Assembly: GCA_017622175.1 (NCBI GenBank)
Contig: JAGARQ010000029.1
Location: 30,002-94,001 of the forward strand
DNA: 64,000 nucleotides
Source: Bacilli bacterium
GTDB lineage: Bacteria > Bacillota_I > Bacilli_A > RF39 > UBA660
Reading direction: 5' to 3'
A program made the position numbers and the translations under genes. The notes beneath the pieces were generated by a model that made no database searches, was not told the DNA's origin, and was given only the letters and a program-made list of their open reading frames with translations. Shown here one piece after another: positions 1,491 to 55,532 of this stretch (position 1 is the stretch's first letter; each line of letters starts with the position of its first letter).

Positions 1491-2312
1491 TTATTTATTG
1501 TAATTTTCTAAAAAAGAGATTTTATTACCATTTTTTTTCGTAGCTAGTACAGTATCTATATTTACATTTTCACTTGATTTGAAAATGTTATATGCAACAT
1601 TTTTATTTTTCTTCTCAAGTTCCTTTATTAGAAGTTTAATTTCTAATCTCTTTGAATCTTTTAAACTATCTTTTTCAGTAAACTTACAGGCACAATTTAT
1701 AAACTCTAAATTATTATATTTTTTCCATGCAATAATAGCATCTTCTCTTACAAGATATAGAGGTCTAATTAATTCCATGCCTTCAAAGTTAGTACTTTTT
1801 AATTTTGGCATCATGCCCTTGTATTCTCCACCATAAAGAATAGAAAGTAGTATTGTTTCTACAACATCATCAAAATGGTGTCCTAATGCAATTTTATTGC
1901 AGCCTAAGTTTTTTGCCTTATCATATAGAAATCCTCGACGCATTCTTGCACATAAATAACATGGTGAGTCGCTTGCATGTTTATTAACCACATCAAATAT
2001 ATCAGAATTAAATACTTGAATATCTATTCCTAATATTTTGGCATTTTCTAATATTTTATTTAAATTGTTGTCGTTATATCCTGGATTCATTACAATATAT
2101 ACTAATTCGAATTTTACTTTTCCATGTTTTTTTATTTCTTCCAAGCATTTTGCTAAAAGAACAGAATCTTTTCCGCCAGAAATACAAACTGCTATTTTAT
2201 CGTTTTCTTCGATTAGTTCATAGTCACGAATAGCTTTTGTAAATGGTCTCCATATTTCTTTGCGAAATTTTGTGATTATGCTTCTTTCGATTTGATGTTG
2301 CCTTTCTAACAT
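1491..2312 (-). CDS. ttcA: TtcA-family PP-loop ATPase (tRNA 2-thiocytidine biosynthesis type)
   Basis: 273 aa. PP-loop CISGGKDS, then CYLCARMRRG and ALGHHFDDVVETILL, typical of the TtcA/TilS-like PP-loop superfamily. Confidence 0.65.
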   Translation of the reverse strand: MLERQHQIERSIITKFRKEIWRPFTKAIRDYELIEENDKIAVCISGGKDSVLLAKCLEEIKKHGKVKFELVYIVMNPGYNDNNLNKILENAKILGIDIQVFNSDIFDVVNKHASDSPCYLCARMRRGFLYDKAKNLGCNKIALGHHFDDVVETILLSILYGGEYKGMMPKLKSTNFEGMELIRPLYLVREDAIIAWKKYNNLEFINCACKFTEKDSLKDSKRLEIKLLIKELEKKNKNVAYNIFKSSENVNIDTVLATKKNGNKISFLENYNK

Positions 2313-2327
2313 ATACTTCCTTCTTTC

Positions 2328-2837
2328 TTATTGTTCTAGAAAATCTGCTCCTTTATGTGGTTCTTCTTTTAGTAAATCATTATAGTCTTGTTGACGTAGA
2401 GCTTCATATATTACTATTGCTACACTATTTGATACATTTAGTGCTCTTACCTTATCGGTCATAGGAATACGCATACAATGTTCTAAATCGTTTTGAAGTA
2501 TTTCTTTTGGAATTCCTGTCGATTCCTTGCCAAATATAAAGTATAAATTTTTCTTTTCTTTATTACTATAGTCAAAACTTGTATGTGGCTTATGACCATA
2601 TCTTGTGAAATAATAGTAAACACCTGGATTTTTTGTTTTAAAATCTTCAAAGTTTTCATATACTTCGTAGTTTAACTTGTCAATATAGTTGACACCACTT
2701 CTTTTTAAATGAGCATCATCTATTTGAAAACCAAGTGGTTTAATTAAGTGCAACTTGGTATCTGTTGCTACGCATGTTCTCATAATATTCCCTGTATTTT
2801 GTGGAATTTCTGGTTGATATAAAACAATATTATTCAT
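2328..2837 (-). CDS. trmL: tRNA (cytidine/uridine-2'-O)-methyltransferase TrmL (SpoU/TrmH family)
   Basis: 169 aa. N-terminus IVLYQPEIPQNTGNIMRTCVATDTKLHLIKPLGF and C-terminal RIPM...RALNVSNSVAIVIYEALRQ are the TrmL/SPOUT knot motifs. Confidence 0.8.
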   Translation of the reverse strand: MNNIVLYQPEIPQNTGNIMRTCVATDTKLHLIKPLGFQIDDAHLKRSGVNYIDKLNYEVYENFEDFKTKNPGVYYYFTRYGHKPHTSFDYSNKEKKNLYFIFGKESTGIPKEILQNDLEHCMRIPMTDKVRALNVSNSVAIVIYEALRQQDYNDLLKEEPHKGADFLEQ

Positions 2838-2861
2838 ATTTCCTCCTAATTTAAAAGGAGA

Positions 2862-3383
2862 TTACTCTCCTATTTTATGTAATTCCATAAATTGTTTTGT
2901 TTTAGTAATTGTTAGTTTTTCATTTTCTTTTCCTTGAAGAAGATGAGTTACTTTTCCGTCTTCAAATATTACTAGAGCAGGATATGTGCTTTTTAGCTTT
3001 AAACTAGTTGTATATTTACTGTTAAATCCTTCTGGAAAGTTAGAAGCTTCTTCTTCTGTTAAATTTAAATAAACAATTACTTCTTGAAGTTCCTCACGAA
3101 CAACATATTTTTTTAGATTTTTTTCATATTTACGACATGTTTCGTTACTTGCTGTACAAATGTACATCATAATTGTTGGATTTTCAGAAATGTAATGCTC
3201 TAATTCTTCACTTGTTATTTCTGACAAAGTACCTCTTATTACTGGGATTTGACGTTTACTGTCTTCATAAACTGTATATACGTTACATAAATAAAATGTT
3301 ATAACTATTGATACTGTAAAAATAAGGGCCAATATTAAATAGTTTTTAATTCCTACTTTTCTTTCTGTTTCTTGTTTCTTCAT
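2862..3383 (-). CDS. Membrane-anchored thioredoxin-fold-like protein (no CXXC)
   Basis: One N-terminal TM (YLILALIFTVSIVITFYL), then an alpha/beta region ending PALVIFEDGKV, like thioredoxin-fold accessory proteins. No CXXC motif. Start moved to ATG at 3383 (MKKQETERK), which is preceded by TAAGGAG at 9 nt. Confidence 0.35.
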   Translation of the reverse strand: MKKQETERKVGIKNYLILALIFTVSIVITFYLCNVYTVYEDSKRQIPVIRGTLSEITSEELEHYISENPTIMMYICTASNETCRKYEKNLKKYVVREELQEVIVYLNLTEEEASNFPEGFNSKYTTSLKLKSTYPALVIFEDGKVTHLLQGKENEKLTITKTKQFMELHKIGE

Positions 3384-3449
3384 AATAAACAACTCCTTAT
3401 CTATCAATATTTTAACACAAATATTATTTTTTTAATACTATAAAGTTAA

Positions 3450-5627
3450 TTATAAATATTGATTTACAATATTTATAATTTCAGTTGCACTCTCGTCAAA
3501 AAAGTTAAAACGAATATTTGCTTTTCTTGTTGATATTATATTGTCGTCAATTATTTTAGTTTCGTAATTTAATATGTGAGTATTTACACCATCATAATAT
3601 ACTGGGAATTTTCTTTCTTTAAAGTCTATTAGATATGTGTCATATTCATTTTCATTTAGGGATAAAATATTTCCTTTTATGATCATATTTTCTACTCTTC
3701 CATAAACAACAACTTCTATATTTGGGTTATATTTAAATGTTTCGTAGTATTTTAAAATTATGTTATTAATTTCGTAATCAGTCAGTTCAACAGATAACGT
3801 TTTTACAGAGATATTTAATTTTTCCAAAAAATATAGTGTATAAATATTTGCAATGTTCATTGGATAATCTGCTACATAATCATTTTCTGTATTTGGAATG
3901 TAATAATCTGAAATTAAGTTTTGGGATTGTTCTAATTCAGATGGTTTTCTAGAACATCTAGGCAATTTATAATATATTTTTTTGTTACTAGAGTACTTAT
4001 TATATAATTCTAAACTTTCTACGTATATTCTTTTTAAATTTAAATCAAGACATGTTTTTAATTGTTCTTCATTATAAACTTGGGCTGTAATACCATATTC
4101 TTCATTATGATTGTTATTATAATCAAAATTTACTTCTTGCTTCTTGAATTCTACTTTTTTATTACTTCTTTTTTCTATTAGTCGTTCCACTAGATTTCTT
4201 CTTAATTCATTTAATTCTTTTATAGAAATAAATATTTCTTCATCATTTGCAATATTGAAATTGTGTAGTTTAAATGGTGTGTTACCTAATTTTTCAAGTT
4301 GTTCTTTAATTCTATCAGATGATACTGGTGAACTTATTGATTTTTGTACTTCGTTTCCATATGCTGTTATTGTATTTTCTTCATCTTTTATTGTTATAAC
4401 TAATGGTTGACCAATTTTGGCAGTAACTTCAAACGATATTGCTATTTTCCTCTCTGGAATTATACTTAAACTATTCATTAATTTATAGTCTTGTGTTTTG
4501 CAGACAACATCTAACTCAGTTAAATTTACTTTATTATCTACATAACAAATGTCATCTGCACTATTAATTAAGTTGTCTTTTGTATCATACAAGAAATTTA
4601 CAATAAATCCCTTTCCACTCTTTAAGAAACGTATTCCATCTTGTTGGTTTAGCGGCTTATCTAGTTTAATTTTTATTTTTGTTGGAGTTATTTCAATTAC
4701 TTTTCCAATTTCTAAACCTATATGATTTGGTGTTTTGGAATTCATTAATTCAGATGGAGATGCATTAAATAAATTGCCACAAGTAAATTCTCTATTGAAA
4801 ATGGTTTTTAATTTATTGGTTTCTTCGTCTAGGTTCTTCATGTTATTGTCAATTAAGTTTCTATAATATCTTGTAATAAATCCTACATATTCAGGGCTTT
4901 TCATTCTACCTTCAATTTTAAAACTTGTAATGTCACTTGCTAGTAACTCTTTCATTTTTATAGAGGAATTTAGTTCCTTTGTGCTAAGCAAATATTTATT
5001 TGACTCAATAATTTTGTTGTTTCTTTCTAAAGAATATGGCAGTCTACAACTTCCAGCGCATTCTCCTCTGTTTCCACTTCTTGTTCCTAACATACTGCTC
5101 ATTAAGCAGCATCCAGAATAACTAATGCATAGTGCTCCGTGTATGAAAACCTCTTTTTCTATCGGAACATCAATACTATTAATTTCTTCTAATGACATTT
5201 CCCTAGAAAAAACTACTCGTTTTACTCCAAGATTATAAAATAGTTTAGCTGTATCTTTGGATGATGTATTGGCTTGTGTTGATGCATGAACTTCTAAATT
5301 TGGATATTTTTGTCGTACTAAACATAACATTCCAAAGTCTTGTATTAATATAGCATCAACATTATTTTTATGTAAGAATTCTACTTGCTCTAAAAATTGT
5401 TCTACTTCATTATCTTTCACAAGTGTATTCATAGTTACATATATTTTTACACCATATAAGTGAGCTAATTTTATTGCCTCCACTATTTCTTCATTGTCAA
5501 AGTTTTTAGCAAATTTTCTGGCTCCAAAACTCTTACTCCCTAAATATATTGCATCAGCTCCATTAAAAATTGCTTGATGTAAACTTTCCATATTCCCCGC
5601 CGGAACTAATAACTCGTGTTTTTTCAT
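3450..5627 (-). CDS. Peptidase U32 family protein (long form)
   Basis: 725 aa. N-terminus ELLVPAGNMESLHQAIFNGADAIYLG, then EVHASTQ, FIHGALCISYSGCCLMS, GNRGECAGSCR, EGRMKSPEYV. These are the canonical U32 motifs. Confidence 0.85.
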   Translation of the reverse strand: MKKHELLVPAGNMESLHQAIFNGADAIYLGSKSFGARKFAKNFDNEEIVEAIKLAHLYGVKIYVTMNTLVKDNEVEQFLEQVEFLHKNNVDAILIQDFGMLCLVRQKYPNLEVHASTQANTSSKDTAKLFYNLGVKRVVFSREMSLEEINSIDVPIEKEVFIHGALCISYSGCCLMSSMLGTRSGNRGECAGSCRLPYSLERNNKIIESNKYLLSTKELNSSIKMKELLASDITSFKIEGRMKSPEYVGFITRYYRNLIDNNMKNLDEETNKLKTIFNREFTCGNLFNASPSELMNSKTPNHIGLEIGKVIEITPTKIKIKLDKPLNQQDGIRFLKSGKGFIVNFLYDTKDNLINSADDICYVDNKVNLTELDVVCKTQDYKLMNSLSIIPERKIAISFEVTAKIGQPLVITIKDEENTITAYGNEVQKSISSPVSSDRIKEQLEKLGNTPFKLHNFNIANDEEIFISIKELNELRRNLVERLIEKRSNKKVEFKKQEVNFDYNNNHNEEYGITAQVYNEEQLKTCLDLNLKRIYVESLELYNKYSSNKKIYYKLPRCSRKPSELEQSQNLISDYYIPNTENDYVADYPMNIANIYTLYFLEKLNISVKTLSVELTDYEINNIILKYYETFKYNPNIEVVVYGRVENMIIKGNILSLNENEYDTYLIDFKERKFPVYYDGVNTHILNYETKIIDDNIISTRKANIRFNFFDESATEIINIVNQYL

Positions 5628-23746: not shown

Positions 23747-26059
23747 TTACCCCGCTTTAAAGTAGGCAAATGTACTTGTGTTTCTCCAGTCATATTGTGC
23801 CCACATATCTGTACTACTACTTCCTGGGTCCATCATAATAATTGTTTGTCCAGCTATAGCATCAACGGCTACCCAGTGTTGTCCTGTATTACCTTTAACT
23901 TCTGCAACGACATAATATCCTTGATTCATTAGGTCTGTAAGTGTTTTAAGTTTTTGATTTTTTGTATATCCTGAAACATATGCTCTTCCAACGAATTGGA
24001 ATGATGGAGCTGCTTTTGATACTGATGCCCATACGTAGTTTCCTCCAGATACAAACCCACCATTATTGTTTAAGAATTGGACAAATGTTCCTGGGTTAAA
24101 ATCATTTATTACTGTTGGAACTCCACTTTTTGCAACTAACATAGAAATTGATGTAACTAAACATCCTATTTGTCTAATATTTTTACCACTGTTTCCCATT
24201 GGAACTGTTGTCCATGGTCCTTCGTATTGTTTCCAACTTGCATATGGACCAGATGATGCTGTTCCACAGTTTGCAGAACCTGCTGTATTACAAGACATTT
24301 TTTGAATATCGGCTGCTCCATAGTTTCTATTTCCAGAGTTATATACTTGTAATAACATTTGTTTATAGTTCATTCCTTGACTTGCAAGACTAGATAATAA
24401 TTTTTGTTCTGTTGACAGATATCCTGCTTGAATAATATATCCTTGGTCATTAACTAATACTTCTCCTGCTGTTGCAGCCATTGCTGTTCTTAGTTGATGT
24501 TCTGCTGCCAAGGCATCTCTTGTTCTAACTGCTCCTGGAACCTTACCGCTTCGACAGATACCACCTTGTCCATCTCCGCCACCCATAAATGAGCATCCTT
24601 CGTTGATGTTACAGAATACTTGATCAGCTACACATGAAGATATTTGTAATACCCATCTACCATTTTCTTCTTCTAACTTTTTACCTAAGGCATTTCCCAT
24701 ACCAGTAGGTCTTGCTAAAGCAAAACTTCTTGCCATAACCATTTGTGCTTTTAGCACTTCTATATGTGCACTAGGTCCAACCTCTGCATATGCAACACCG
24801 GCAACATATTCTTCAAATGGTACTAAGTCTTGATCGATAGCTTTACCATATGTTCCATTTCCATAAGGTTTACCGCATTCCATCAATCTAACCATTAAAT
24901 TTGATATCTGCATTTGTTTTGGGATGTTTCCTGCTCCTGGGATGTAAAAGCCTTTAATATCATAATTACATGCACCTGCTGCTGCACATCCGTATCCTTC
25001 TGAACCAATGAAACTAAAATATCTGTCCATATAATCAAATACTTCTTCTGTCATTTGTTCACGTTTCTTTTGTGAGGTTCTCGGAAAATATTTATAGAAA
25101 ATTACATTTGTTAGATTATATTTAAATGTTGTTTCATCATAGACGTTTCCACTAAACATGCCATTTGCTATTTCAGTTATCACAGACTCTGTCATAAATT
25201 TATAATCATAGTCGTTATTATTAACATTCATGACATGATATACTGATGCTATTTTTAATGCATCTACACTTTTTCCATTTGCTTGCATTTTTAATTTTAC
25301 AGAGTTAATTCTGTCATAAAATGCTTGAGCTTCTGGGTCTGATGCTGTGAAAACGATGTTTCCTGTTTCGCCACCTGCAGCTCCACTAGCCCCTAGTGCA
25401 TCGTCAAAGTCGGCTACTCCACCACCTACTGCTCCAGATATTGCAAAGAAAAGTAATAATATTCCTGCAAGGGGAGCAACTAAAAGCATAATTGCTTTAG
25501 TTTCTGGTTTCATTTGAAATTCAAACATTGAGTCTAATGGGTCTTGTTCTTCTCCACCCATATCATCTCCGTCATCCATCCAATTTTTGGGTTTCTTTCC
25601 TCCAAATCCTTTGCCAAATCCACCAGATGAATCTGATGATGAACTTGAAGTTGAAGATGCTTTGTCTGCAGCATTTGCCGCATCCCCTGCTTTTGAAGCA
25701 GCATCTGCACCTCCAGATCCACCATTACTCATTCCGTTTTTAATGGCTGCTGCTTGTCCAATTTTATCACTTGCTCCACTTTCACTCATTTTATTTAGTG
25801 AATTTTGAACTTGATTTCCTCCTGGAGCCATTTTATTAGCTTGATTTAGGGCTTTTCCTGCCATTTCAGTACTTTTACCACCCGTAAGTTTATCAGCTGC
25901 TTTAACAGCAGCTCCTGCAGCCATAGCATAAGGATTACCGGAAGCCATGGCTACTTCAGCTGCATTTCTTATGTTGTTAGCATTATTTTGAATATTACGT
26001 TCATCTTGCGACATTTGATTTTCTCTTTGATCGCCTTCACGATTTGCTTCGTATGCCAT
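23747..26059 (-). CDS. Bifunctional cell-wall hydrolase: SpoIID/LytB-like domain plus C-terminal Cys-peptidase (CHAP/C39-like), VirB1 analog
   Basis: 770 aa. ~190-aa G/A/S/N-rich N-region, one TM (AIMLLVAPLAGILLLFFAISGAV). SpoIID-like FEEYVAGVAYAEVGPSAHIEVLKAQMVMARSFAL...ATAGEVLVNDQGYIIQAGY. C-terminal IGCLVTSISMLVAKSG...GQHWVAVDAI (Cys/His pair). Confidence 0.65.
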   Translation of the reverse strand: MAYEANREGDQRENQMSQDERNIQNNANNIRNAAEVAMASGNPYAMAAGAAVKAADKLTGGKSTEMAGKALNQANKMAPGGNQVQNSLNKMSESGASDKIGQAAAIKNGMSNGGSGGADAASKAGDAANAADKASSTSSSSSDSSGGFGKGFGGKKPKNWMDDGDDMGGEEQDPLDSMFEFQMKPETKAIMLLVAPLAGILLLFFAISGAVGGGVADFDDALGASGAAGGETGNIVFTASDPEAQAFYDRINSVKLKMQANGKSVDALKIASVYHVMNVNNNDYDYKFMTESVITEIANGMFSGNVYDETTFKYNLTNVIFYKYFPRTSQKKREQMTEEVFDYMDRYFSFIGSEGYGCAAAGACNYDIKGFYIPGAGNIPKQMQISNLMVRLMECGKPYGNGTYGKAIDQDLVPFEEYVAGVAYAEVGPSAHIEVLKAQMVMARSFALARPTGMGNALGKKLEEENGRWVLQISSCVADQVFCNINEGCSFMGGGDGQGGICRSGKVPGAVRTRDALAAEHQLRTAMAATAGEVLVNDQGYIIQAGYLSTEQKLLSSLASQGMNYKQMLLQVYNSGNRNYGAADIQKMSCNTAGSANCGTASSGPYASWKQYEGPWTTVPMGNSGKNIRQIGCLVTSISMLVAKSGVPTVINDFNPGTFVQFLNNNGGFVSGGNYVWASVSKAAPSFQFVGRAYVSGYTKNQKLKTLTDLMNQGYYVVAEVKGNTGQHWVAVDAIAGQTIIMMDPGSSSTDMWAQYDWRNTSTFAYFKAG

Positions 26060-26085: not shown

Positions 26086-27876
26086 TTAGAATCCTCCGCC
26101 TGAACCGAATGAATCTAACTCTTCTTTTGTTACTACTACGTTAATTCTCATACGTCTACTTCCACATACAAACAGTGCTTCTCCTTGAGAATAACGTTTA
26201 ATGCTTTCTTTTTCGTTTTCATTCAAGTCAATTAATCTTGATAAATCTTCAACAGCTTGTTTCTTTAATCCCATTACTAAGTAATAAGAAGCATTATCGA
26301 AAATAGCTTTTCCATCAGTAATTACTGCTTCATCAGCAAAGTCACTTGGTTGTTGAGTTATGATTATTGTTCCAGTATTGTATTTACGAGCTCTTCTTTG
26401 TACTTGAGCTAAGAACTCTGAACCTTGTTGATTTCTACTACTCATTAATACGTGAGCTTCATCAACTAATAATACTGTATCTACACTTGGATCTAAGCAT
26501 AATCCCCAAGCATATTTTAAAACATTGAATAATAAAGCATTTCTTATATTTGCATCACTATTCATTAATTCTTTAATATTAAATACCATGAAGTCACTAC
26601 CTCGTGGTAATGTTGTGTGTCCATCGAAATAGAATCTTAATTCTTTAACGATTGGTCTAATTTCTAGTTCTAGTCTTTCCATGATATCACGTTCTTTTGT
26701 TTGATCTGTCATAGAAAGAAGTCTTCCCTTAATTGTTGCATAAACATCTGAGAATATTGGGAAATCTTTTGATGAGAATGATGAGAAATCTGTATCAAAG
26801 TCTATACCAAAACGTTTATATGTATCTTGAACTACATCACTAAACATAGCTAAAACATCTTGTGCTATTGCTGGGTTATAGTATTTCATAAAACCTTTAA
26901 GGAAATTTAATGTTCTATTTAATACTGTATATCCCATTCCTTGTTTAATTTCTTCTTCATCCGCGTCAAAAATTACTTCTAGTGGATTGATAAGTCCAAA
27001 TTCTCCACCCTTACCAATATCTACAGTGTCTCCTCCAAAAGATCTTGTGATTTCTCTGAATTCATCTTCTGGATCGATTATAACAATTTGACAACCATTT
27101 CTAATATGTGTTCTCAATAATAGTTTTGCTGCGGTTGATTTTCCTGAACCAGATGTTCCTAGAATAATCATATTAGCATTATTTCTATTATGTTCTTTTC
27201 TTATTTTATATAAGAATTGGTTAAATAGAATTACTCCTCCAGAGAAGTCAACACCTAATAATGTTGATAATCCTGGATCTTTAATACTATCGAAAATAAA
27301 TGGATACATAGCCGCTACTGTTACTGAAGGAATTGGTGTACCAATTCTTTGTTCAATATCTTGTGATGGGAATATTGGTAGCATTGATTTCAATACTTTT
27401 TCTTGTTCAAAGCGTAGTGAAATTGCTCTTAATTCCATTGCATCTAAATAGTTTTTAACATTCATTTTCTTTAATTCTAATTCTTCTTTTGTATTTGCAG
27501 CAATCATGATATGCATTTGGAAATCAAAGTTTTTGGCTTGGCTTCCAGCAATCATTGATGTAAAGTATTCCAAACTTTCTGCATCTTGTCTTAATCTTTC
27601 ACGAATAGTTTGGTCTCTTTCATTACGATATTTTTCTTTTAAATCTGCTACTTCTTTATTTAACATCTTAACCATATCTTGATATGGAACTGGAATATGT
27701 TTAACAACAATTTTAATACCAGCCATGTTTGTAAGTGATGCTAAATAACCAGGTGTAATGTATTTTGGAAATGATACAACAGTTAAAATTGTTGCATATT
27801 TATCACTTATAAAAAAATCACTTGGTGAGAAATGTAACCCCTTCGGAGCTAATTGACTTCTTAAACCTGTACTCAT
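26086..27876 (-). CDS. virB4: VirB4-family T4SS ATPase (ATPase part)
   Basis: 596 aa. LAPKGLHFSPSDFFISDKYATILTVVSFPKYITPGYL N-region typical of Gram-positive VirB4 (TraE/PrgJ/TcpF type). Walker A ILGTSGSGKST, Walker B VLLVDEAH, IIITQQPSDF. Confidence 0.85.
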   Translation of the reverse strand: MSTGLRSQLAPKGLHFSPSDFFISDKYATILTVVSFPKYITPGYLASLTNMAGIKIVVKHIPVPYQDMVKMLNKEVADLKEKYRNERDQTIRERLRQDAESLEYFTSMIAGSQAKNFDFQMHIMIAANTKEELELKKMNVKNYLDAMELRAISLRFEQEKVLKSMLPIFPSQDIEQRIGTPIPSVTVAAMYPFIFDSIKDPGLSTLLGVDFSGGVILFNQFLYKIRKEHNRNNANMIILGTSGSGKSTAAKLLLRTHIRNGCQIVIIDPEDEFREITRSFGGDTVDIGKGGEFGLINPLEVIFDADEEEIKQGMGYTVLNRTLNFLKGFMKYYNPAIAQDVLAMFSDVVQDTYKRFGIDFDTDFSSFSSKDFPIFSDVYATIKGRLLSMTDQTKERDIMERLELEIRPIVKELRFYFDGHTTLPRGSDFMVFNIKELMNSDANIRNALLFNVLKYAWGLCLDPSVDTVLLVDEAHVLMSSRNQQGSEFLAQVQRRARKYNTGTIIITQQPSDFADEAVITDGKAIFDNASYYLVMGLKKQAVEDLSRLIDLNENEKESIKRYSQGEALFVCGSRRMRINVVVTKEELDSFGSGGGF

Positions 27877-30843: not shown

Positions 30844-31911
30844 CTATTGTAATCCACAGATTCCACTTGATGTTATATTAAATAGTTCTAATAGCGCTCC
30901 AATTAAATCTGGTAAGAAGAATAAACTGGCAGCAAGAATTAATCTTATGATTAATTTACTTTGCGCTTTTTTCATACCATCATCGTCACCCATTACAACA
31001 ACTTTAGCAAAATCTATACCGCTCATTACAACTACTATAAATGGACCAATTAATTTAATCCAATTAAATATAATTTGTAAGAAATATGCTACTGAATTTG
31101 GATCATTGTAACTACCTAAGATACTGTTATCTCCAGTACAATCTTGATTTTGATTATAATCTTCTAACCATTCATCCATATCAGGGTCACCATATGCTGC
31201 GTGATATGCTCTAGCACTTGTTTCTTGACCATCTGTTAAACTATAACCACTTTCTTTTTTATTAGATAATAAATATACATAAACGTCATTTTCTTTTTTT
31301 ACATTTCTAAATATTAATTCATGATTATCTAATAATGTGTTATCTATTTTAATTTCTAATTTATTATCTTTATATACTTTAAATATTGAGTCGTTTGTTG
31401 AATCAAAGTTTAGTCCATCAACTGACCATTCTTTAGTTCCATCATCTAATACTCTTATGTATGGGATAAAATAGTTATCTTCATTATAAATTCCTACACT
31501 ACTAAGAGCAGTAGTCTCTACTGCTTTTTTTACAGAAATATTTGTGTTTGAATCAAATTCATATGCACTTATTGTAGTACATTTTCCATTACATTCATCT
31601 TTACTTTTAGGATTATTAAACACAGTTGTAAAGATTTCTGTTTCTTCAATTGTGATTGTTGGACAAACATAACTATTACTATTTTCTTTTGCTAATTTTA
31701 AATATTTTTTAGCAAAGTCTTGTTCATGATACCAATTATTTTTTCCATCTTCAAATGGCAATTCTGTTTTACCATTAATTGTATAAACTAATTCTTTATC
31801 TTGATATTGATATTTACATGTTACCTTTGCTTCTTTTGCATTAATATTATTTGGTATAAGCAGTGCTACTAATACTGCTAAAATTAAACCAAAAAGTTGC
31901 TTTTTTTTCAT
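30844..31911 (-). CDS. Secreted protein with C-terminal VirB2/TrbC-like two-TM hairpin
   Basis: 355 aa. Signal peptide MKKKQLFGLILAVLVALLIPNNINA, ~250-aa ectodomain. The C-terminus IGPFIVVVMSGIDFAKVVVMGDDDGMKKAQSKLIIRLILAASLFFLP is homologous to the 106-aa ORF upstream. Confidence 0.55.
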   Translation of the reverse strand: MKKKQLFGLILAVLVALLIPNNINAKEAKVTCKYQYQDKELVYTINGKTELPFEDGKNNWYHEQDFAKKYLKLAKENSNSYVCPTITIEETEIFTTVFNNPKSKDECNGKCTTISAYEFDSNTNISVKKAVETTALSSVGIYNEDNYFIPYIRVLDDGTKEWSVDGLNFDSTNDSIFKVYKDNKLEIKIDNTLLDNHELIFRNVKKENDVYVYLLSNKKESGYSLTDGQETSARAYHAAYGDPDMDEWLEDYNQNQDCTGDNSILGSYNDPNSVAYFLQIIFNWIKLIGPFIVVVMSGIDFAKVVVMGDDDGMKKAQSKLIIRLILAASLFFLPDLIGALLELFNITSSGICGLQ

Positions 31912-32003: not shown

Positions 32004-32324
32004 TTATACTGATTCCCAGCAAGACCACCAATTTCCAGTATTTCCAGTTCCACCTTTAGCAACAACATCCATTACTGCTTTTACTAGGAATACTACGAAG
32101 AAAATTAGCGCTGCATAAATAGCACGTTTGATTAATCTACTTTGTGCTGCCTTAACTTCTTTTTCATCACTTGCAATTACTGCTTTACCGAAATCGATAA
32201 CTGCATATACAAGTAATGCAATTGGAATAACAATATATACAATTGGGAATAACCCGTTTTTAACTAAACTTACTAGTGGGTCTAATCCTCCACAAGCTGA
32301 AGCTAATTGAACTAATTCTAACAT
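32004..32324 (-). CDS. VirB2/TrbC-like pilin-type T4SS protein (two-TM hairpin)
   Basis: 106 aa. Two TM helices joined by a charged loop: FPIVYIVIPIALLVYAVIDFGKAVIASDEKEVKAAQSRLIKRAIYAALIFFVVFLV. Strong RBS GAAGGAGAGG. Size and topology match VirB2/TrbC and the pilin-like conjugal transfer proteins of Firmicutes/Mollicutes. Confidence 0.55.
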   Translation of the reverse strand: MLELVQLASACGGLDPLVSLVKNGLFPIVYIVIPIALLVYAVIDFGKAVIASDEKEVKAAQSRLIKRAIYAALIFFVVFLVKAVMDVVAKGGTGNTGNWWSCWESV

Positions 32325-48900: not shown

Positions 48901-50094
48901 TTACACATCTCTTTTCTTAATTAGTCTAATCATAGAATATTCTGGAATATTTATGTCTGTATCTAGATATATATAATAAATATTATCTGGATGTCTTGCT
49001 ACATCTATTGATTCTTTATTTTCATCAAATAATTTTTCTACATTAAAAGATATTACTTCTCCAGATGGTGTGAATAATTCTAATGAGTCACCTACTTCAA
49101 AATAATTTCTTTCATAGAATTTTATTAGTTTTGTTTCATTATCATACTCTATTACTTGACCTAAGTAATCTTGGTTAGATATTTCTTGTCTTCCTGTATA
49201 GTATTGATCTGTTTCATCTGCTTCTTTTGTGAAATAGTGAGTTGATACTTCTCTATTTGCTACTCTGCTTAAACGATATTCTAATAATTCTAGTTTTTCT
49301 TTTGTTAAAGCGTTTGAATAAATTGAATCTATTAACTCTCTATATGTACCTATTACTGTTGCTAGATAATATAGTGAACGCATACGGCCTTCTACTTTTA
49401 ATGATTTAACACCAATTTCAATTAAATCTTTTATATGATTGGCCATATTTAAGTCTTTTGTTGCCATTGTAAATTTCTTTTCTTCATCTGTTTCGAAAGC
49501 AAAACGACATACTTGAGAACATCCTCCACGATTAGCATCTCTGTTAGTTACATAATTCGATAATGCACATCTTCCAGAAAAACATGTACACATTGCACCA
49601 TGAATAAATACTTCAATATCTACTTTTGTTTTATCAATTATTTCTTTGATTTCATTTTTTGATAATTCTCTTGCAAGGACTACTCTATCTATTCCTTCTT
49701 CTTTAAAATATTCTACTGCAGAATAATTGCTTGTTGAGTTTTGGGTTGATAAGTGAACTTCAACATTTGGATAATTTGTTTTTATATGAGAAATAATAAA
49801 TGGATCACTTACTATAAAAGCGTCTATTCCTGCATCTACTACTTCTTTAATATATTCTTCTACCCCATCCATATCTTCATTATGGAAAACAATATTTAGG
49901 GTAAGATATACTTTTTTATTTAGTTTATGAGCAAAGTCACAGCCTTCTTTTATTTCTTCAATTGAGAAATTTGTGGCATTGGCACGTAAACTATATTTTT
50001 GTCCTCCAATGTATACAGCATCTGCTCCATATGAAAGAGTTACTTTTAGTCTTTCTAAATCACCTGCTGGTGATAATAATTCTACTCTATCCAT
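48901..50094 (-). CDS. Peptidase U32 family protein, YrrO/TrhP2-like
   Basis: 397 aa. ELLSPAGDLERLKVTLSYGADAVYIGG, EVHLSTQ, FIHGAMCTCFSGRCALS, ANRGGCSQVCR, EGRMRSLYY. Sits in the yrrM-yrrN-yrrO type arrangement. Confidence 0.8.
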   Translation of the reverse strand: MDRVELLSPAGDLERLKVTLSYGADAVYIGGQKYSLRANATNFSIEEIKEGCDFAHKLNKKVYLTLNIVFHNEDMDGVEEYIKEVVDAGIDAFIVSDPFIISHIKTNYPNVEVHLSTQNSTSNYSAVEYFKEEGIDRVVLARELSKNEIKEIIDKTKVDIEVFIHGAMCTCFSGRCALSNYVTNRDANRGGCSQVCRFAFETDEEKKFTMATKDLNMANHIKDLIEIGVKSLKVEGRMRSLYYLATVIGTYRELIDSIYSNALTKEKLELLEYRLSRVANREVSTHYFTKEADETDQYYTGRQEISNQDYLGQVIEYDNETKLIKFYERNYFEVGDSLELFTPSGEVISFNVEKLFDENKESIDVARHPDNIYYIYLDTDINIPEYSMIRLIKKRDV

Positions 50095-50950
50095 TTTTCT
50101 TCACCTGATATATGGTTTTCTTGAAGAAGAAGTTTGTATTTGTACCAAGTTTTTCATATTTAGTTACATAATTACTATCTGTACATGAATCATTAATGTA
50201 GTTTCTTGTATCAGTTAATATTTCTAAGAATAAATCTTCTTCTATGCCATACCCTCTCATAATAATATACTCTAAGCCATTATCATATAAATCCTTAATT
50301 ACACTAGTACCATTAATAATATCTTTTAAGAAGAAACTTGTACCATTTTTATCTTCGGCTAAGTGATAGGTTGATGATGTAACTTTTTCTAAGACATCCA
50401 AACTACTTTTTGATTCCTTATTTAAATCTTTATAATAATTTGTAATTAATTTTCTTTTGGAAAAAGCAACACTAGGTAATCCTAGAACTTCTACCATTGA
50501 TGTAATTGTAGATTTCTTTATTATTTCAATAATTTCTTCTAAAGTTATTTCTTTTCCAAGGAGAGCATATTTCACTCCTTTGGAATGGTAATAATTACAT
50601 GTTTTGTAATTATTAACCATATGTGTTTGACTCCATACTAAATCAGTATTTAGATTTAGTTCTTTTTTTAATTTTAAAAGTGCTAAATCATAGAAGAAAA
50701 TACCATTTAAATTTAATGTGTCTAGTTCTTTTAAAATATCTTTTAATGGTTCAATGTCATTATTTAGTAAATTTTTATTGATATTTACATATATTTCTAG
50801 TTGTGGATTATTTATTTTTAGTTGTTTTATTTCATCTAGTGAATAATATATTGGACTTTGTACTGAGTAATCTTTTAATGATACTATTAGTCCATTTACG
50901 ATATCTTTATATATATTATTTTTATTGCTTGGTTCTATTAAAAGTTTCAT
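50087..50950 (-). CDS. U32-family partner protein, YrrN/TrhP1-like
   Basis: 287 aa. Overlaps the downstream U32 gene by 8 nt. TIM-barrel-like periodicity without the Cys-rich motif. Assignment is mainly by synteny with B. subtilis yrrN-yrrO. Confidence 0.5.
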   Translation of the reverse strand: MKLLIEPSNKNNIYKDIVNGLIVSLKDYSVQSPIYYSLDEIKQLKINNPQLEIYVNINKNLLNNDIEPLKDILKELDTLNLNGIFFYDLALLKLKKELNLNTDLVWSQTHMVNNYKTCNYYHSKGVKYALLGKEITLEEIIEIIKKSTITSMVEVLGLPSVAFSKRKLITNYYKDLNKESKSSLDVLEKVTSSTYHLAEDKNGTSFFLKDIINGTSVIKDLYDNGLEYIIMRGYGIEEDLFLEILTDTRNYINDSCTDSNYVTKYEKLGTNTNFFFKKTIYQVKKNG

Positions 50951-51012: not shown

Positions 51013-51822
51013 TTAGGTGTTATTTACTTCACTTGAAAGTGGTTTGTTTTCTTCTTCTGTTACTGGTGATGATGCTATTTCAAATTCAAAACTTTTATCT
51101 GAAAAATATTCTTCTTCACCAAATATAGAGTGAGCTATAAATGTTTTAAAAGCAATTAGTTTTCCATCTCTTACATAATAAGATAAGTGGTCACTATATT
51201 TACTTACTCCACGCCATTTTAGGAAACAATTAAAGTTACATTCATTGGCAGAATAATATTTTTCTTTTAATATATCTGCATAATAATTTTGGAATTGTCT
51301 TTTTATTTTGTATTCTACATTTGACTTTGTTATTCCAAAGAATTGTAGTAATGCATCATCCGCTATAACTTCTTCTCTTTCTAGGTTGATATTATATGTT
51401 CTAAAGTATGGTTCAGGAGCATATGTTGTGTCATTATTGATAACTTTTATTACTAAAGAAAGAATTATCCCGTTAATATCATATTCATATGTTATTACAC
51501 TTTTTTCTTTCATGTATTTGTCACAGAATAATAATATATCTTTATTCACTTCTTTAAATACATCTGCTTTTAAATTAACATATGGAACTTCTTTTGTATA
51601 TTTTGTACTTGTATCTGAATATTTTGTATATACTAAATACATGCCTTTATCTTGTTTAATATTGTTATAATTTACGTTGGTTGTATTATGATAAAAAACT
51701 ACCATTAAGAAAGCAATTAATATTACTGTTCCAGCGATAAGGCTGGCTTTTTTTGTACTTTGACTAACTTTGGTTGGTCTTTTTACTTTTCTAACTCTTC
51801 TTATATTTCTATTACTAGCCAT
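51013..51822 (-). CDS. Membrane-anchored hypothetical protein
   Basis: 269 aa. Basic N-terminus, one TM (LIAGTVILIAFLMVVFY), extracellular domain of unknown family. Confidence 0.4.
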   Translation of the reverse strand: MASNRNIRRVRKVKRPTKVSQSTKKASLIAGTVILIAFLMVVFYHNTTNVNYNNIKQDKGMYLVYTKYSDTSTKYTKEVPYVNLKADVFKEVNKDILLFCDKYMKEKSVITYEYDINGIILSLVIKVINNDTTYAPEPYFRTYNINLEREEVIADDALLQFFGITKSNVEYKIKRQFQNYYADILKEKYYSANECNFNCFLKWRGVSKYSDHLSYYVRDGKLIAFKTFIAHSIFGEEEYFSDKSFEFEIASSPVTEEENKPLSSEVNNT

Positions 51823-51834
51823 ATTCCCCTCCTA

Positions 51835-52713
51835 TTAATTTACACCATTTATTCTCATAATTCCTAGGATAGCGTGACTGGAACAAGTTCTATAATCTGG
51901 ATCAAGAACTACTCCCCATTTTGAGCCTTTTGCATGAACAACTTCTGTTCCAATTCCTGTTAGAATTCCTACGTGTCCATCGTACATTACTAAGTCTCCT
52001 GCTCTAATATCTGCAGGACTTACTAATTGATAAGTAGATTTTGCAGCCCATTGTGTGGAAGTTGTTCTATTTAATTGAATTCCAAAATGTCTAAAGACAC
52101 CTTGTACAAAACCACTACAGTCTGTTGGAGTGTATGGTAATTCTCCATTCCAAGTACCACCATAAACATATCTTTGTCCAACAAATCGTTTGGCATAAGC
52201 TACTATTTCTGCACCCCTCATTGAAGATTGACCATTACCAGGCTGTGGTGTTGTTCCTGTTGGATTGGATGGTGTTCCTGGTTTATATAAACTTGGATCA
52301 ATAAGAATTGATTTTCTATCATCACCTTTATTTGGATCAATATATCTAGCTTTTCCAGCTTGGGATACTTCACTAGATATTTTTGCAAGTTCCCAACAAT
52401 CAGCTATTTTGAAAGTTGATGTTTGGCTTACCATTCCTAAAACAACATCTACAATAACTGGTATAAAGAAACATATTAGTGCGGCTATAGCACGATTTGT
52501 TATTTCTTTCATACCATTTTTTCTTTCTGGATCATTCATTAATTTTATTAGTTGTATTGTTACTCCAATGATTAATAAAATTGGAACTACTATTTGAAAA
52601 ATATTAAAAAACTTGCGAACTATATCTAATACTGTTGCTAAAGCAAAATCGGTACAACAAGTTCCTAATGTATCATTACATGTTAATATTTGAAAATATT
52701 GCATTGGTTTCAC
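51835..52713 (-). CDS. NlpC/P60 (C40) peptidoglycan endopeptidase fused to an N-terminal VirB2-like two-TM hairpin
   Basis: 292 aa. N-terminal FQIVVPILLIIGVTIQLIKLMNDPERKNGMKEITNRAIAALICFFIPVIVDVV parallels ORFs 32004-32324 and 30844-31911. C-terminal YVYGG...DCSGFVQGVFRHFG...GDLVMYDGHVGI...H is the C40 catalytic pattern. Confidence 0.7.
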   Translation of the reverse strand: MKPMQYFQILTCNDTLGTCCTDFALATVLDIVRKFFNIFQIVVPILLIIGVTIQLIKLMNDPERKNGMKEITNRAIAALICFFIPVIVDVVLGMVSQTSTFKIADCWELAKISSEVSQAGKARYIDPNKGDDRKSILIDPSLYKPGTPSNPTGTTPQPGNGQSSMRGAEIVAYAKRFVGQRYVYGGTWNGELPYTPTDCSGFVQGVFRHFGIQLNRTTSTQWAAKSTYQLVSPADIRAGDLVMYDGHVGILTGIGTEVVHAKGSKWGVVLDPDYRTCSSHAILGIMRINGVN

Positions 52714-52810
52714 TTCCTTGCTTCTTAAGATTATTTTATCAAATTTATATTTTTTTGGGAATTATTTTATATTAGACTTTACAGAATAAAAAAAGATGTA
52801 TAAACATCTT

Positions 52811-53398
52811 TTATTGAGGTCTTGAAATAGCTATTCCATCACCAATTTCTAAAAATTCTGTATCATACTTTTTATTTTCTTTTAGAAATGTTGCATAGTC
52901 TTTAAGTTTTCTAACTAAAGCTCTTAGATTTCTACTTTTAATATCTTCAGGATCTTTGTTTACTAAACCATGGAAATTCATATTATCAGTAATAATTGTT
53001 CCTTTAGGATTTAGATATTTAGAGAACATTTCAAAAAATTTAATATTTTGAGCTTTAGCAGCATCAATAAAGATCAAATCATAGGTACCTTCAATTTTTA
53101 CATCAAATGCATCTTTATATATTAGATTAATTCTATCTTCTAAATGAAATTTTTTTATATTTTTTACTGCTTCAAGATATCTTTTTTCATCTCTTTCAAT
53201 TGTTGTTATTTCGATTTGTTCATCTACTAGTGCCATTTTTATTGCAGAATATCCTATAGCAGCACCTATTTCTAATATTCTTTTTACTTTATGTTTTTTT
53301 ATATATTCTGTTAAAAACTCGATTCCATCTTTTGTCATGATTGGAACATTATTTTCTTCTGCATATTCTTCAATGCGAACTAGTTCAGTTTCTACCAT
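52811..53398 (-). CDS. trmR: SAM-dependent O-methyltransferase, YrrM/TrmR-like
   Basis: 195 aa. ILEIGAAIGYSAIKMA (motif I), LIFIDAAK, family-3 O-methyltransferase layout. Adjacent to mltG, as yrrM is in B. subtilis. Confidence 0.6.
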   Translation of the reverse strand: MVETELVRIEEYAEENNVPIMTKDGIEFLTEYIKKHKVKRILEIGAAIGYSAIKMALVDEQIEITTIERDEKRYLEAVKNIKKFHLEDRINLIYKDAFDVKIEGTYDLIFIDAAKAQNIKFFEMFSKYLNPKGTIITDNMNFHGLVNKDPEDIKSRNLRALVRKLKDYATFLKENKKYDTEFLEIGDGIAISRPQ

Positions 53399-54468
53399 AT
53401 CCAGTCACCTTTTTCTTTTATTTCTTTTACTTTGGCATTGTGTTCTGCTAAAGTGCTTGTGAAATATATTTTACCATACTTATCCGCAACAAAGTATAAA
53501 TAATTTGACTTTGTTGGTGAAGTAGCGGCTTGGATTGATGATTCTGAAGGGTTACAAATTGGTCCAATTGGCATTTTTCCCATCATAGATGTTGAACGAG
53601 TGTTGTATGGGTTTACGGTTGCAAATTGAGCTGTTGTTAAATCTTGTGTCATTGGGTGTTGAAGAGCATAATAAGTTGTTACATCACTACCTAAATTCAT
53701 TCCTTTTATTAATCTATTTTCAAATACGTTTACTATTTGCTTTCTATTTTCAGTATTTGTTCCTTCTAGTTCTGCAAGGGATGCCATGGTTACATAATAA
53801 TGAACTGGTAATGTCATACTATCTTTATATTTATTTAATACTTTTTCTGTTTGATTTAACATAGTTTCAATTATTGCTTCAACTGAAACATCTTTATTTG
53901 AAAATTGATATGTATTTGGTGCAAGATATCCTTCTAATGGATAATAAATGCTTTCATTTAAAATATCTTCTGTTAAAAACCAATAATTATCAACTAATTT
54001 TTTAGCATAATTTTTATCTTTCATTATTGCTATTACTTCATCATATGTGTGATTTGTTTTATTAGAAATTGTTTTACTATAATCAGTTATCCATTCTCCT
54101 TCTTTGAAGGTAATTGTTATAACATCTGGATTATAACTATTTCCACTTTCTAGTACTTTTACTATTTCTTCTAAAGACATATCTTTTGTCATGGTATAAG
54201 TTGAAGCCTTCATAGGAGCTGGCCTTTTTACTTTAATATATATATTAAAGAATAGTTCACTTCTTATTAAGCCTTTTTGTTTTAAAATTACACCAATTTG
54301 ACGAGATGTTGTTCCATTAGGAATTATTACTTCTACTTTATTTTTGTCATTTTTATTAACTGGGCTTGTAAAAATAGACCAAGTTATTCCTAATGCAATT
54401 GCAATTATAATTAAAATTATTAAGATTATTAATAATGGTTTTGCCTTCATTTTCTTCTTAACTGTCAT
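53392..54468 (-). CDS. mltG: Endolytic murein transglycosylase MltG (YceG-like)
   Basis: N-terminal TM, LEGYLAPNTYQF, VNPYNTRSTSMMGKMPIGPICNPSESSIQAATSPTKSNYLYFVAD. The track start at 54483 is a TTG inside GAGGAGG, so the start was moved to ATG at 54468 (MTVKKKMK). Confidence 0.85.
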   Translation of the reverse strand: MTVKKKMKAKPLLIILIILIIIAIALGITWSIFTSPVNKNDKNKVEVIIPNGTTSRQIGVILKQKGLIRSELFFNIYIKVKRPAPMKASTYTMTKDMSLEEIVKVLESGNSYNPDVITITFKEGEWITDYSKTISNKTNHTYDEVIAIMKDKNYAKKLVDNYWFLTEDILNESIYYPLEGYLAPNTYQFSNKDVSVEAIIETMLNQTEKVLNKYKDSMTLPVHYYVTMASLAELEGTNTENRKQIVNVFENRLIKGMNLGSDVTTYYALQHPMTQDLTTAQFATVNPYNTRSTSMMGKMPIGPICNPSESSIQAATSPTKSNYLYFVADKYGKIYFTSTLAEHNAKVKEIKEKGDWIW

Positions 54469-54500
54469 TAAAGACCTCCTCAAGAAAAAATAAAGAGCTT

Positions 54501-55461: not shown

Positions 55462-55532
55462 ATGATCACCTCACTATAATATTTATATTTTAATTTTATC
55501 ATTATTTACCTGTAATTACAATAATCGTTTTA

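Follow-up and report, generated by a model that had tools for sequence, protein, structure and literature searches.

Why does a cell-wall hydrolase carry a pilin-like membrane hairpin, and why is it encoded in a block of housekeeping genes, outside the secretion-like cluster that holds the related pilins? This question is raised by two adjacent genes in a stretch of 64,000 nucleotides from a Bacilli bacterium (GCA_017622175.1, contig JAGARQ010000029.1, positions 30,002 to 94,001), hereafter the window. The first gene encodes an NlpC/P60 hydrolase with an N-terminal two-helix hairpin (hairpin-P60), and the second encodes a membrane protein (the partner). A first-pass annotation had described the hydrolase as a detached component of a gene cluster in the same window that resembles Tad and type IV secretion systems (T4SS). 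On the evidence below, we give about an even chance to the reading that the pair comprises a membrane-tethered NlpC/P60 autolysin with a pilin-derived anchor and a cognate keeper of the RsiV fold. The pair has more the look of an anciently acquired module for wall maintenance than of an established component of the secretion machine close by.

We investigated the hairpin-P60 protein by domain searches, an alignment of 39 sequences and an AlphaFold2 (AF2) model built on the same number (mean predicted local distance difference test, pLDDT, 74). At E<=0.001, 468 homologues were found, the named ones being recorded as 'C40 family peptidase [Bacilli bacterium]'. Residues 179-268 matched PF00877 NlpC_P60 (E 1.4e-14, 54.3 bits against a cut-off of 23), and residues 30-91 matched PF18895 T4SS_pilin in the protein scan (E 1.6e-7, 31.7 bits against a cut-off of 26.6), a match that reached 34.9 bits in the genome scan. 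The fusion to a C40 endopeptidase that the first-pass annotation had described was borne out, as the PF00877 domain is intact and C196 (DCSGF), H244 (GHV) and H257 are invariant in the alignment; from knowledge of the NlpC/P60 family, we take these three residues to be the catalytic triad. The true start of the open reading frame (ORF) is probably ATG 52704, because of an AAGGAAG ribosome-binding site, its spacing of 8 nt from this codon, and the resulting N-terminus MQYFQIL, which is kept in 38 homologues and in five same-genus spacers.

The membrane part of the protein lies ahead of the enzyme. The Cys-rich N-terminal segment noted in the first pass is real and conserved in the 39 sequences: L13, G14, C16 and C17 are invariant, C9 is nearly so, and with a top-residue frequency of 0.72 this tail is the best conserved region apart from the catalytic domain. 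Across the protein, this frequency was 0.80 in the P60 domain, the most conserved part, and 0.60-0.72 in the hairpin and N-tail. The AF2 model placed the two hairpin helices at residues 20-57 and 64-95 (pLDDT 67-83) with a short charged loop, NDPERKNGMKEITNR, between them, followed by a juxtamembrane helix (residues 100-117) and a linker of about 40 residues that is disordered in the model. C103-W104, directly past the second hairpin helix, is invariant, and the 'CWE' motif that begins with it is common to the small pilin of the cluster. No signal peptide was evident in the protein. A lipoprotein reading of 'ILTC' in the N-tail was rejected on inspection by eye, there being no preceding signal-peptide h-region. 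The interhelix loop is basic, and the enzyme has to lie on the side of the wall; the hairpin would therefore have its two ends outside and its loop in the cytoplasm, as in VirB2, and the Cys-rich tail would then also face outward.

To place the hairpin, we compared it with the two copies in the cluster, the small pilin and the C-terminus of a larger protein of 355 aa. In both, PF18895 was the top Pfam match and stayed below the cut-off, with 15.1 bits in the small pilin (32004-32324) and 17.2 bits in the C-terminal part of ORF 30844-31911. BLASTP of hairpin-P60 against the small pilin gave E 5e-8 with 30% identity over 80 aa, up to the shared terminal CWE, and both proteins have a Cys at the N-terminus and a 'CW' motif past the second transmembrane (TM) helix. 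The match of hairpin-P60 to the 355-aa protein was weak (E 0.021), and the small pilin matched the C-terminus of that protein at E 3e-12. The three hairpin copies are therefore homologous by transitivity through the matches of the small pilin. These findings uphold the first-pass claim of a third copy of the cluster's hairpin module, directly for the small pilin and by transitivity for the 355-aa protein, and the module alignment proposed with that claim returned a significant N-terminal similarity.

The same hairpin serves as the anchor of C39-like, GDSL and Amidase_3 enzymes as well. The own genome (1.43 Mb in 66 contigs, 95% complete) carries two tandem hairpin fusions on another contig (C49:6224-9416, loci L002 and L003), one of 328 aa with a GDSL/SGNH domain and one of 326 aa with a Peptidase_C39_2-like domain. 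They adjoin a NAGPA phosphodiester glycosidase gene and a probable glycosyltransferase gene, the latter named by eye, and the partner profile search found no RsiV-like or partner-like neighbour of these two enzymes. The hairpin of hairpin-P60 was 43% and 38% identical to the two C49 fusions and 35% identical to a hairpin-Amidase_3 fusion of another species, as against 28% and 20% for the two cluster copies. By sequence identity, then, it is closer to enzyme-fused hairpins away from the cluster than to the cluster pilins. Weak PF18895 genome matches on contigs C17 (13.3 bits) and C27 (11.4 bits) lay within unrelated membrane proteins and were dropped as chance. We found no description of pilin-hairpin/hydrolase fusions in the literature, where the supplements of PMC12102498 could still list some.

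The partner gene begins 12 nt past the stop codon of the P60 gene. We found 90 homologues of its product; they come without exception from uncultured Bacilli, and no Pfam domain was matched in any of them. The AF2 model, built on 36 sequences (pLDDT 83.8), showed an α/β ectodomain. When this model was compared with known structures by VIA-align, the best match was 5jen_C, RsiV with lysozyme (Z 12.6, root-mean-square deviation 3.6, 171 residues, 15% identity), followed by 3cyg (Z 11.1), 4e72 (Z 8.8) and 3s5t (Z 8.3), after which the score dropped to Z 5.4. Foldseek returned the same entries at E 1e-5 to 5e-5 (best 1.3e-5). The matches coincide with the structural neighbours of RsiV given in its structure paper, namely 3CYG, 3S5T, 4E72/PA4972 and 2HHI (PMC5014341). 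As modelled, the partner has the two-domain DUF4163-DUF3298 (RsiV) fold. According to that paper, B. subtilis RsiV puts loops into the lysozyme active site and inhibits the enzyme at a 1:1 ratio (PMC5014341). The partner has no cytoplasmic anti-sigma domain, and no sigma factor gene adjoins it, its neighbours being the P60 gene and yrrN. A P60 gene paired with an RsiV-fold gene was not found described in the literature.

Invariant cysteines lie on the predicted outer side of both proteins, at C16, C17 and C103 of the enzyme and at C195 and C199 (CxxxC) of the partner. The large protein of the cluster is likewise Cys-rich. Extracytoplasmic disulfides seem to be common in this lineage.

We then assessed how the pair is placed and inherited. 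The trmR-yrrN junction was surveyed in 41 genomes, the own genome and 40 relatives, of which 29 have both genes on one contig. In 19 of these 29, the two genes are less than 450 bp apart; seven carry the pair (the own genome and six of its seven same-genus relatives), one has another insert, and two are ambiguous. We take trmR (yrrM) and yrrN to be adjacent in B. subtilis as well. Because 19 of the 29 junctions are closed and seven hold the pair, the first-pass annotation was right that the pair interrupts a conserved synteny, and the PF01596 and PF01136 matches of the flanks confirmed that both ORFs lie between trmR(yrrM)-like and yrrN-like genes. In a different genus, one genome (G008; L021, G008:C27:22000-29000) has an unrelated 3-kb insert at this junction (positions 2297-5139) with ORFs of 402 and 506 aa. 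The junction seems to be permissive for insertions.

To extend the survey, the fusion alignment was scanned against one genome per species of the GTDB collection, and 51 loci were returned. Full-length fusions of 37-85% identity were present in 48 of them; the other three (L077-L079, from Lachnospiraceae and Limivivens metagenome-assembled genomes, MAGs) matched in the P60 domain only, over residues 163-285, and were kept out of the synteny count and the tree. The gene order ruvX-yrzB-mltG-trmR-[fusion] was found in all 48 species loci, and yrrN-yrrO came next in 43 of the 48, which are all those whose contig reaches that far. The RsiV-like partner adjoins the fusion in 47 loci, and the contig of the 48th stops 230 bp past the P60 gene. 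In three loci the pair is retained in inverted order. Three loci have a second partner-like gene together with a second hairpin gene (L040, L045 and L067, the latter two by tblastn only); in L040:3134-4961, an RsiV-like gene (247 aa) and then a hairpin-Amidase_3 fusion (365 aa, E 2.9e-12) lie between trmR and the P60 gene, and the second matches in L045 and L067 occupy that place too. When the 41 genomes were searched with a partner profile, exactly one copy was found in each of the eight carriers and none in G003, a same-genus genome, and elsewhere the only match was a weak one over 65 positions in G017 (E 9e-4). These results show that the two genes co-occur strictly.

A tree was built from six flanking proteins (59 tips, 1,546 columns, FastTree LG+gamma) and rooted on a genome of another family; one carrier of another genus, G011, was excluded, as its module is split over contigs C68 and C62. 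All carriers formed one clade with support of 0.999. G003, whose junction is empty (108-118 bp), was nested in this clade as the sister of G002 with support of 1.0; its empty junction thus represents a loss of both genes. The history of the pair is one gain, vertical descent and one joint loss of both genes.

In the mechanism that we favour, the first gene would produce a peptidoglycan endopeptidase of the NlpC/P60 type that is active and is tethered at the membrane's outer face through its N-terminal hairpin, which this lineage may have reused as a general anchor for P60, C39-like, GDSL and Amidase_3 enzymes. The linker would be flexible, and because of the hairpin tether and its approximately 40 residues, the enzyme would reach only the membrane-near wall. 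The second gene would encode a single-pass membrane protein whose ectodomain, by analogy with RsiV, binds and gates the cognate hairpin-hydrolase. We infer that the partner binds and inhibits the P60 enzyme and that the pair takes part in wall growth or turnover. A single insertion at the trmR/yrrN junction of the mltG block placed the module in the ancestor of a clade that comprises at least 49 species of gut Bacilli with small genomes, and its inheritance has been vertical since. Judging by the MAG labels ('Mycoplasma sp. CAG:877', 'uncultured Tenericutes' and Ca. Faecimonas, the last of which NCBI places in Bacilli incertae sedis), the own genome presumably falls within one of the orders RFN20, RF39 and ML615J-28. 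The ancestor of these orders is predicted in PMC10868615 to have lost most lyt/cwl endopeptidases, a loss that would make room for a lineage-specific replacement autolysin.

Several observations weigh against this reading. The role cannot be universal housekeeping: three genera without the pair (G017, G020 and G016) gave no PF00877 match, although the tree puts two of them directly beside the carriers, and G003 lives without the pair and keeps only a different P60 protein of 335 aa. This separate NlpC/P60 protein of 335-340 aa occurs in four same-genus genomes (G003:C5:4415-4696, and like places in G001, G002 and G004), and no copy of it was found in the 95%-complete own genome. The partner is tied to DUF3298/DUF4163 through its fold and language-model features only, since PF11738 or PF13739 matched none of 36 family members at E<=1 and a search of PDB sequences gave no hits; in the language-model Atlas its nearest named clusters were DUF3298 (0.89 and 0.87), which serves as a lead only. 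Not every protein of this fold binds lysozyme, and another such protein showed no lysozyme binding (PMC5014341). The G004 copy of the partner gene (L025, G004:C4, 2100-2900) has stop codons at its 5' end and is missing a normal start, next to an intact P60 gene; this may be a real defect or an assembly error, and if it is real, the keeper is dispensable. A complex prediction of P60 residues 98-289 with partner residues 52-256 of the ectodomain, run without controls, scored 0.23 and 0.12, the mark being 0.32, and tells neither for nor against binding.

Other points that count against it concern the cluster. The hairpin is more constrained than a passive anchor requires, given that the plain TM helix of the partner has a top-residue frequency of 0.38 against 0.62 for its ectodomain. 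Because its conservation exceeds that of a plain anchor, the hairpin likely makes specific contacts, possibly with pilin or machine parts. The VirB4-like ATPase of the cluster was present in all 13 carriers tested, and in six of the seven carriers of the genus, the own genome included, it lies about 25 kb from the pair on the same contig; in G003, VirB4 lies at a like distance from the empty junction. In the non-carrier genera, by contrast, VirB4 and trmR are on different contigs. Beside the pair, in nine of the 48 loci, eight of them from one sub-clade, there is a type IV prepilin-like gene with a G|F[ST]L[VI]E N-terminus. Its place is between yrrN and the RsiV-like gene, and its frames span 122-788 aa, some of them being very rich in Cys (L048:6721-8859, L063:6708-7379, L045, L050, L053, L059, L068, L071 and L072). 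The own genome has eight prepilin-like ORFs on C35, C48, C53 and C54, and none on the contig of the window.

These cluster-related points, together with the homology of the hairpins down to the N-terminal Cys and the 'CW' motif, speak for an accessory subunit of the Tad/T4SS-like machine, a reading we regard as somewhat unlikely. The pilin-type hairpin would pack with the VirB2-like pilins in a membrane pool, filament or conduit and bring a second wall-cutting enzyme to the place where the machine crosses the thick monoderm wall, and the RsiV-like partner would silence it until assembly. It would also fit the VirB2-like arrays that lie near VirB4 in relaxase-less, probably co-opted T4SS of Patescibacteria, as described in PMC12102498. 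The distribution of the machine argues otherwise. Of 24 same-family genomes, 23 have VirB4 (65-98% identity), and so do two from other families (60% and 69%). The housekeeping protein TrmR is less conserved (51-85%); the T4SS-like machine behaves as a vertically inherited core system and not as a mobile element. With the queries used, the pair was absent from 16 VirB4-positive genomes of the family, among them G003, where VirB4 (92% identity) persists some 25 kb from the junction that the pair vacated. The co-occurrence check of the first-pass annotation thus came out both ways, in favour for the 13 carriers and against for the 16 genomes without the pair, and it has no statistical power, because nearly the whole family has the cluster.

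The genes themselves point away from the machine as well. A hydrolase with a SpoIID domain is already encoded within the cluster (ORF 23747-26059), and since VirB4 also persists without the pair, the pair is not an obligatory part of the machine. A T4SS hydrolase of the VirB1 type is encoded within the T4SS operon, whereas the hairpin-P60 gene sits in the mltG block in every species locus; a VirB2-like subunit is small, stands alone and lies next to VirB4, whereas hairpin-P60 is a fusion of 289 aa whose gene lies some 25.7 kb away from VirB4 and some 6 kb past the last ORF of the cluster. Added to these is the grouping of its hairpin with distant enzyme fusions (35-43%) and not with the cluster pilins (20-28%). 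The first-pass claim of a detached machine component, delivered through the VirB2-like assembly or docked to it, is therefore unsupported in the form given, in view of the machines without the pair, the separate SpoIID hydrolase, the nearest hairpin relatives and the fixed place among mltG, trmR, yrrN and yrrO.

A wider form of the idea is that the chromosomal T4SS/Tad-like machine found across the family builds a conduit or filament from VirB2-like hairpins and that enzyme-bearing hairpins (P60, amidase, C39-like and esterase) co-assemble with these into a wall-cutting pilus base, each enzyme being inactivated by an RsiV-fold keeper of its own until assembly; we hold this to be unlikely. If true, secretion machines would have a new means of crossing or attacking a thick wall, and a function would be found for the pilin arrays of Patescibacteria, which are puzzling so far.

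The partner might instead act alone, as an RsiV-type receptor for, or inhibitor of, lysozyme-like enzymes of host or foreign origin in the gut, and merely share a transcription unit with the hydrolase. Its closest fold match is RsiV with lysozyme, which RsiV inhibits (PMC5014341), and the record titles of the genomes name gut samples. This is improbable in our view, as the partner has only about 24 cytoplasmic residues in place of an anti-sigma N-domain, has no adjoining sigma factor gene and shares just 15% of its residues with RsiV; moreover, it co-occurs strictly with the hairpin-hydrolase and was lost with it, and in L040 the second partner-like copy stands beside a second hairpin gene, the amidase fusion.

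An antibacterial effector and immunity pair, with the P60 enzyme delivered to competitors, perhaps via the neighbouring machine, and the membrane protein shielding the own wall, would suit the layout of a hydrolase beside a small membrane protein, the likeness of the hairpin-fused enzymes (amidase/peptidase, GDSL esterase) to effector repertoires of killing secretion systems and the joint loss in G003, but it is very improbable, for two membrane-spanning helices are hard to export, the module is single-copy, vertical and syntenic over 49 species with none of the turnover and orphan immunity genes that such pairs typically show, conservation within the protein peaks in the P60 domain, contrary to an arms race, and the C49 hairpin enzymes have no partner-like neighbour.

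The positions of the two genes, their parts and the neighbouring features are collected in the table.

Table 1. Features of the hairpin-P60/partner locus and of the related cluster genes, in positions of the window
Feature	Positions	Strand	Evidence or remark
Hairpin-anchored NlpC/P60 endopeptidase gene	51835..52704	(-)	289 aa from ATG 52704; ORF listing begins at GTG 52713
Cys-rich N-tail, residues 1-19, MQYFQILTCNDTLGTCC..	52648..52704	(-)	Alignment conservation
Two-helix membrane hairpin, residues ~20-95, PF18895 T4SS_pilin-like, basic loop	52420..52647	(-)	Pfam, AF2, BLASTP
Juxtamembrane helix with C103-W104 ('CWE' motif)	52345..52419	(-)	Alignment, BLASTP, AF2
Low-complexity linker, residues ~121-159	52228..52344	(-)	pLDDT <50; top-residue frequency 0.44
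NlpC/P60 (C40) catalytic domain	51838..52227	(-)	PF00877; invariant columns; pLDDT 86-96
Partner gene: ~24 cytoplasmic residues, one TM helix, predicted RsiV/DUF4163-DUF3298-fold ectodomain	51013..51822	(-)	AF2, VIA-align, Foldseek
Promoter-like site before the pair, extended -10 (TGaTAAAAT)	52733..52761	(-)	TGnTAAAAT invariant
Terminator-like stem-loop and T-run directly 3' of the trmR stop	52786..52812	(-)	-7.9 kcal/mol, z -3.1
trmR/yrrM-like O-methyltransferase, upstream flank	52811..53398	(-)	PF01596 E 3.6e-21
mltG, endolytic transglycosylase, same gene block	53392..54483	(-)	PF02618 E 1.8e-66; TIGR00247 218.9 bits vs cut-off 103.4
yrrN-like U32 peptidase, downstream flank	50087..50950	(-)	PF01136
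yrrO-like gene, past yrrN	48901..50094	(-)	
Stand-alone hairpin, the small pilin of the cluster, 106 aa	32004..32324	(-)	PF18895 sub-threshold; BLASTP
Hairpin at the C-terminus of the 355-aa cluster protein (ORF 30844-31911)	30865..31083	(-)	PF18895 sub-threshold; BLASTP
VirB4-like ATPase of the cluster	26086-27876		

The spacer between trmR and the P60 gene was examined for local signals. A stem was present at the same site of this spacer in five same-genus genomes, the window included, with differing stem sequences; a consensus terminator scan missed the stem in the window because it has too few G-C pairs. The -10 motif was invariant in all five genomes (the window and four others), although promoter-like sites as a class were not enriched in the window (32 found against 30.9 expected in shuffles). 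Because of the terminator-like stem-loop and the conserved -10 in the spacer, the pair looks like a separate transcription unit in its own genus. Judged from tblastn ends, many of the other carriers have a spacer of just 25-50 nt or so.

A promoter motif common to the pair and the cluster was considered and rejected, as ATAATGNTAAAAT with one mismatch gave six matches against 5.47 expected and is an ordinary extended -10. Its only exact match elsewhere in the window lies upstream of the housekeeping gene yrzL. At that place, an exact ATAATGATAAAAT extended -10 (55493-55505, minus strand) precedes the yrzL-like gene, and it is probably the promoter of the yrzL-ruvX-yrzB-mltG-trmR unit. In a bovine-gut metatranscriptome (X1), two contigs of 151 nt with one mismatch each fell inside the partner gene (51384-51534 and 51675-51825), and the P60 gene had no match of that quality (contigs only, 0.06 of sampled words). 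These contigs cannot show transcription, strand or co-expression, and the RNA library may contain DNA.

New in this locus are the RsiV-fold partner, a position in the mltG block that is fixed and of single origin, the naturally occurring loss in G003 and the comparison with the distribution of the cluster. Autolysins have to be held closely in check, and the leashes known for this are few, comprising FtsEX, LysM or teichoic-acid targeting, and IseA. The module suggests another one, in which a pilin-derived double-helix anchor, used by several wall enzymes, is combined with a membrane partner of the RsiV fold. About 50 species of uncultured gut Bacilli with small genomes carry it at a fixed place in the mltG block, and it may help their walls to grow, because most lyt/cwl endopeptidases are reported as lost in this group (PMC10868615). 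The finding also bears on the role of PF18895 as a 'pilin' in monoderms, where the fold is abundant in this lineage, partly detached from the machine and carrying enzymes. As far as we are aware, T4SS of Gram-positive bacteria are usually said to lack pilins.

Among known systems, the first comparison is with the VirB2-like pilins of PF18895, which are described mainly as arrays next to VirB4 in Patescibacteria (PMC12102498). Like them, hairpin-P60 has two helices with a short charged loop, and it passes the gathering score of the family. In both cases the paralogues within one genome are divergent, with 20-43% identity here and an average of 25% within the Patescibacteria arrays (PMC12102498), and the T4SS-like system of the host appears, like those surveyed, to be co-opted, being chromosomal and vertically inherited. 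Unlike the free pilins, hairpin-P60 bears a 130-residue enzyme behind a linker, and unlike the arrays, it lies about 25 kb from VirB4, in a housekeeping block with an RsiV-fold gene beside it. Its host also differs, being a member of the Bacilli, and no signal peptide is evident.

Conjugative T4SS of monoderms have wall hydrolases of their own, such as PrgK (pCF10), TraG (pIP501), CwlT (ICEBs1) and TcpG (pCW3), and CwlT and PrgK include endopeptidase domains of the NlpC/P60 or CHAP type. These enzymes are encoded inside the transfer operon, are needed for transfer and are attached by a single TM helix or a lipid anchor; we know of no RsiV-fold partner for any of them. Hairpin-P60 resembles them as a membrane-anchored wall hydrolase in a genome with a VirB4 like that of the mating-pair formation class MPF-FATA. 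It differs in lying outside a cluster that has a separate hydrolase and in its pilin-hairpin anchor.

The partner resembles RsiV (5JEN) in being a single-pass protein with an extracytoplasmic DUF4163-DUF3298 fold, one known to bind and block a peptidoglycan hydrolase (PMC5014341). It differs in having no anti-sigma domain, no sigV neighbour, low identity and no Pfam match. The ligands would differ as well, RsiV binding host lysozyme and the partner, by analogy, the P60 enzyme or amidase of its own cell.

The membrane-controlled D,L-endopeptidases of Bacillus are CwlO, which acts with FtsEX, and LytE, and IseA is their inhibitor. Hairpin-P60 would be like CwlO and LytE in being an NlpC/P60 autolysin of the membrane-near wall with a dedicated protein partner, the control by the partner being proposed here. 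It differs wholly from them in tethering and control, having neither a LysM nor a coiled-coil domain.

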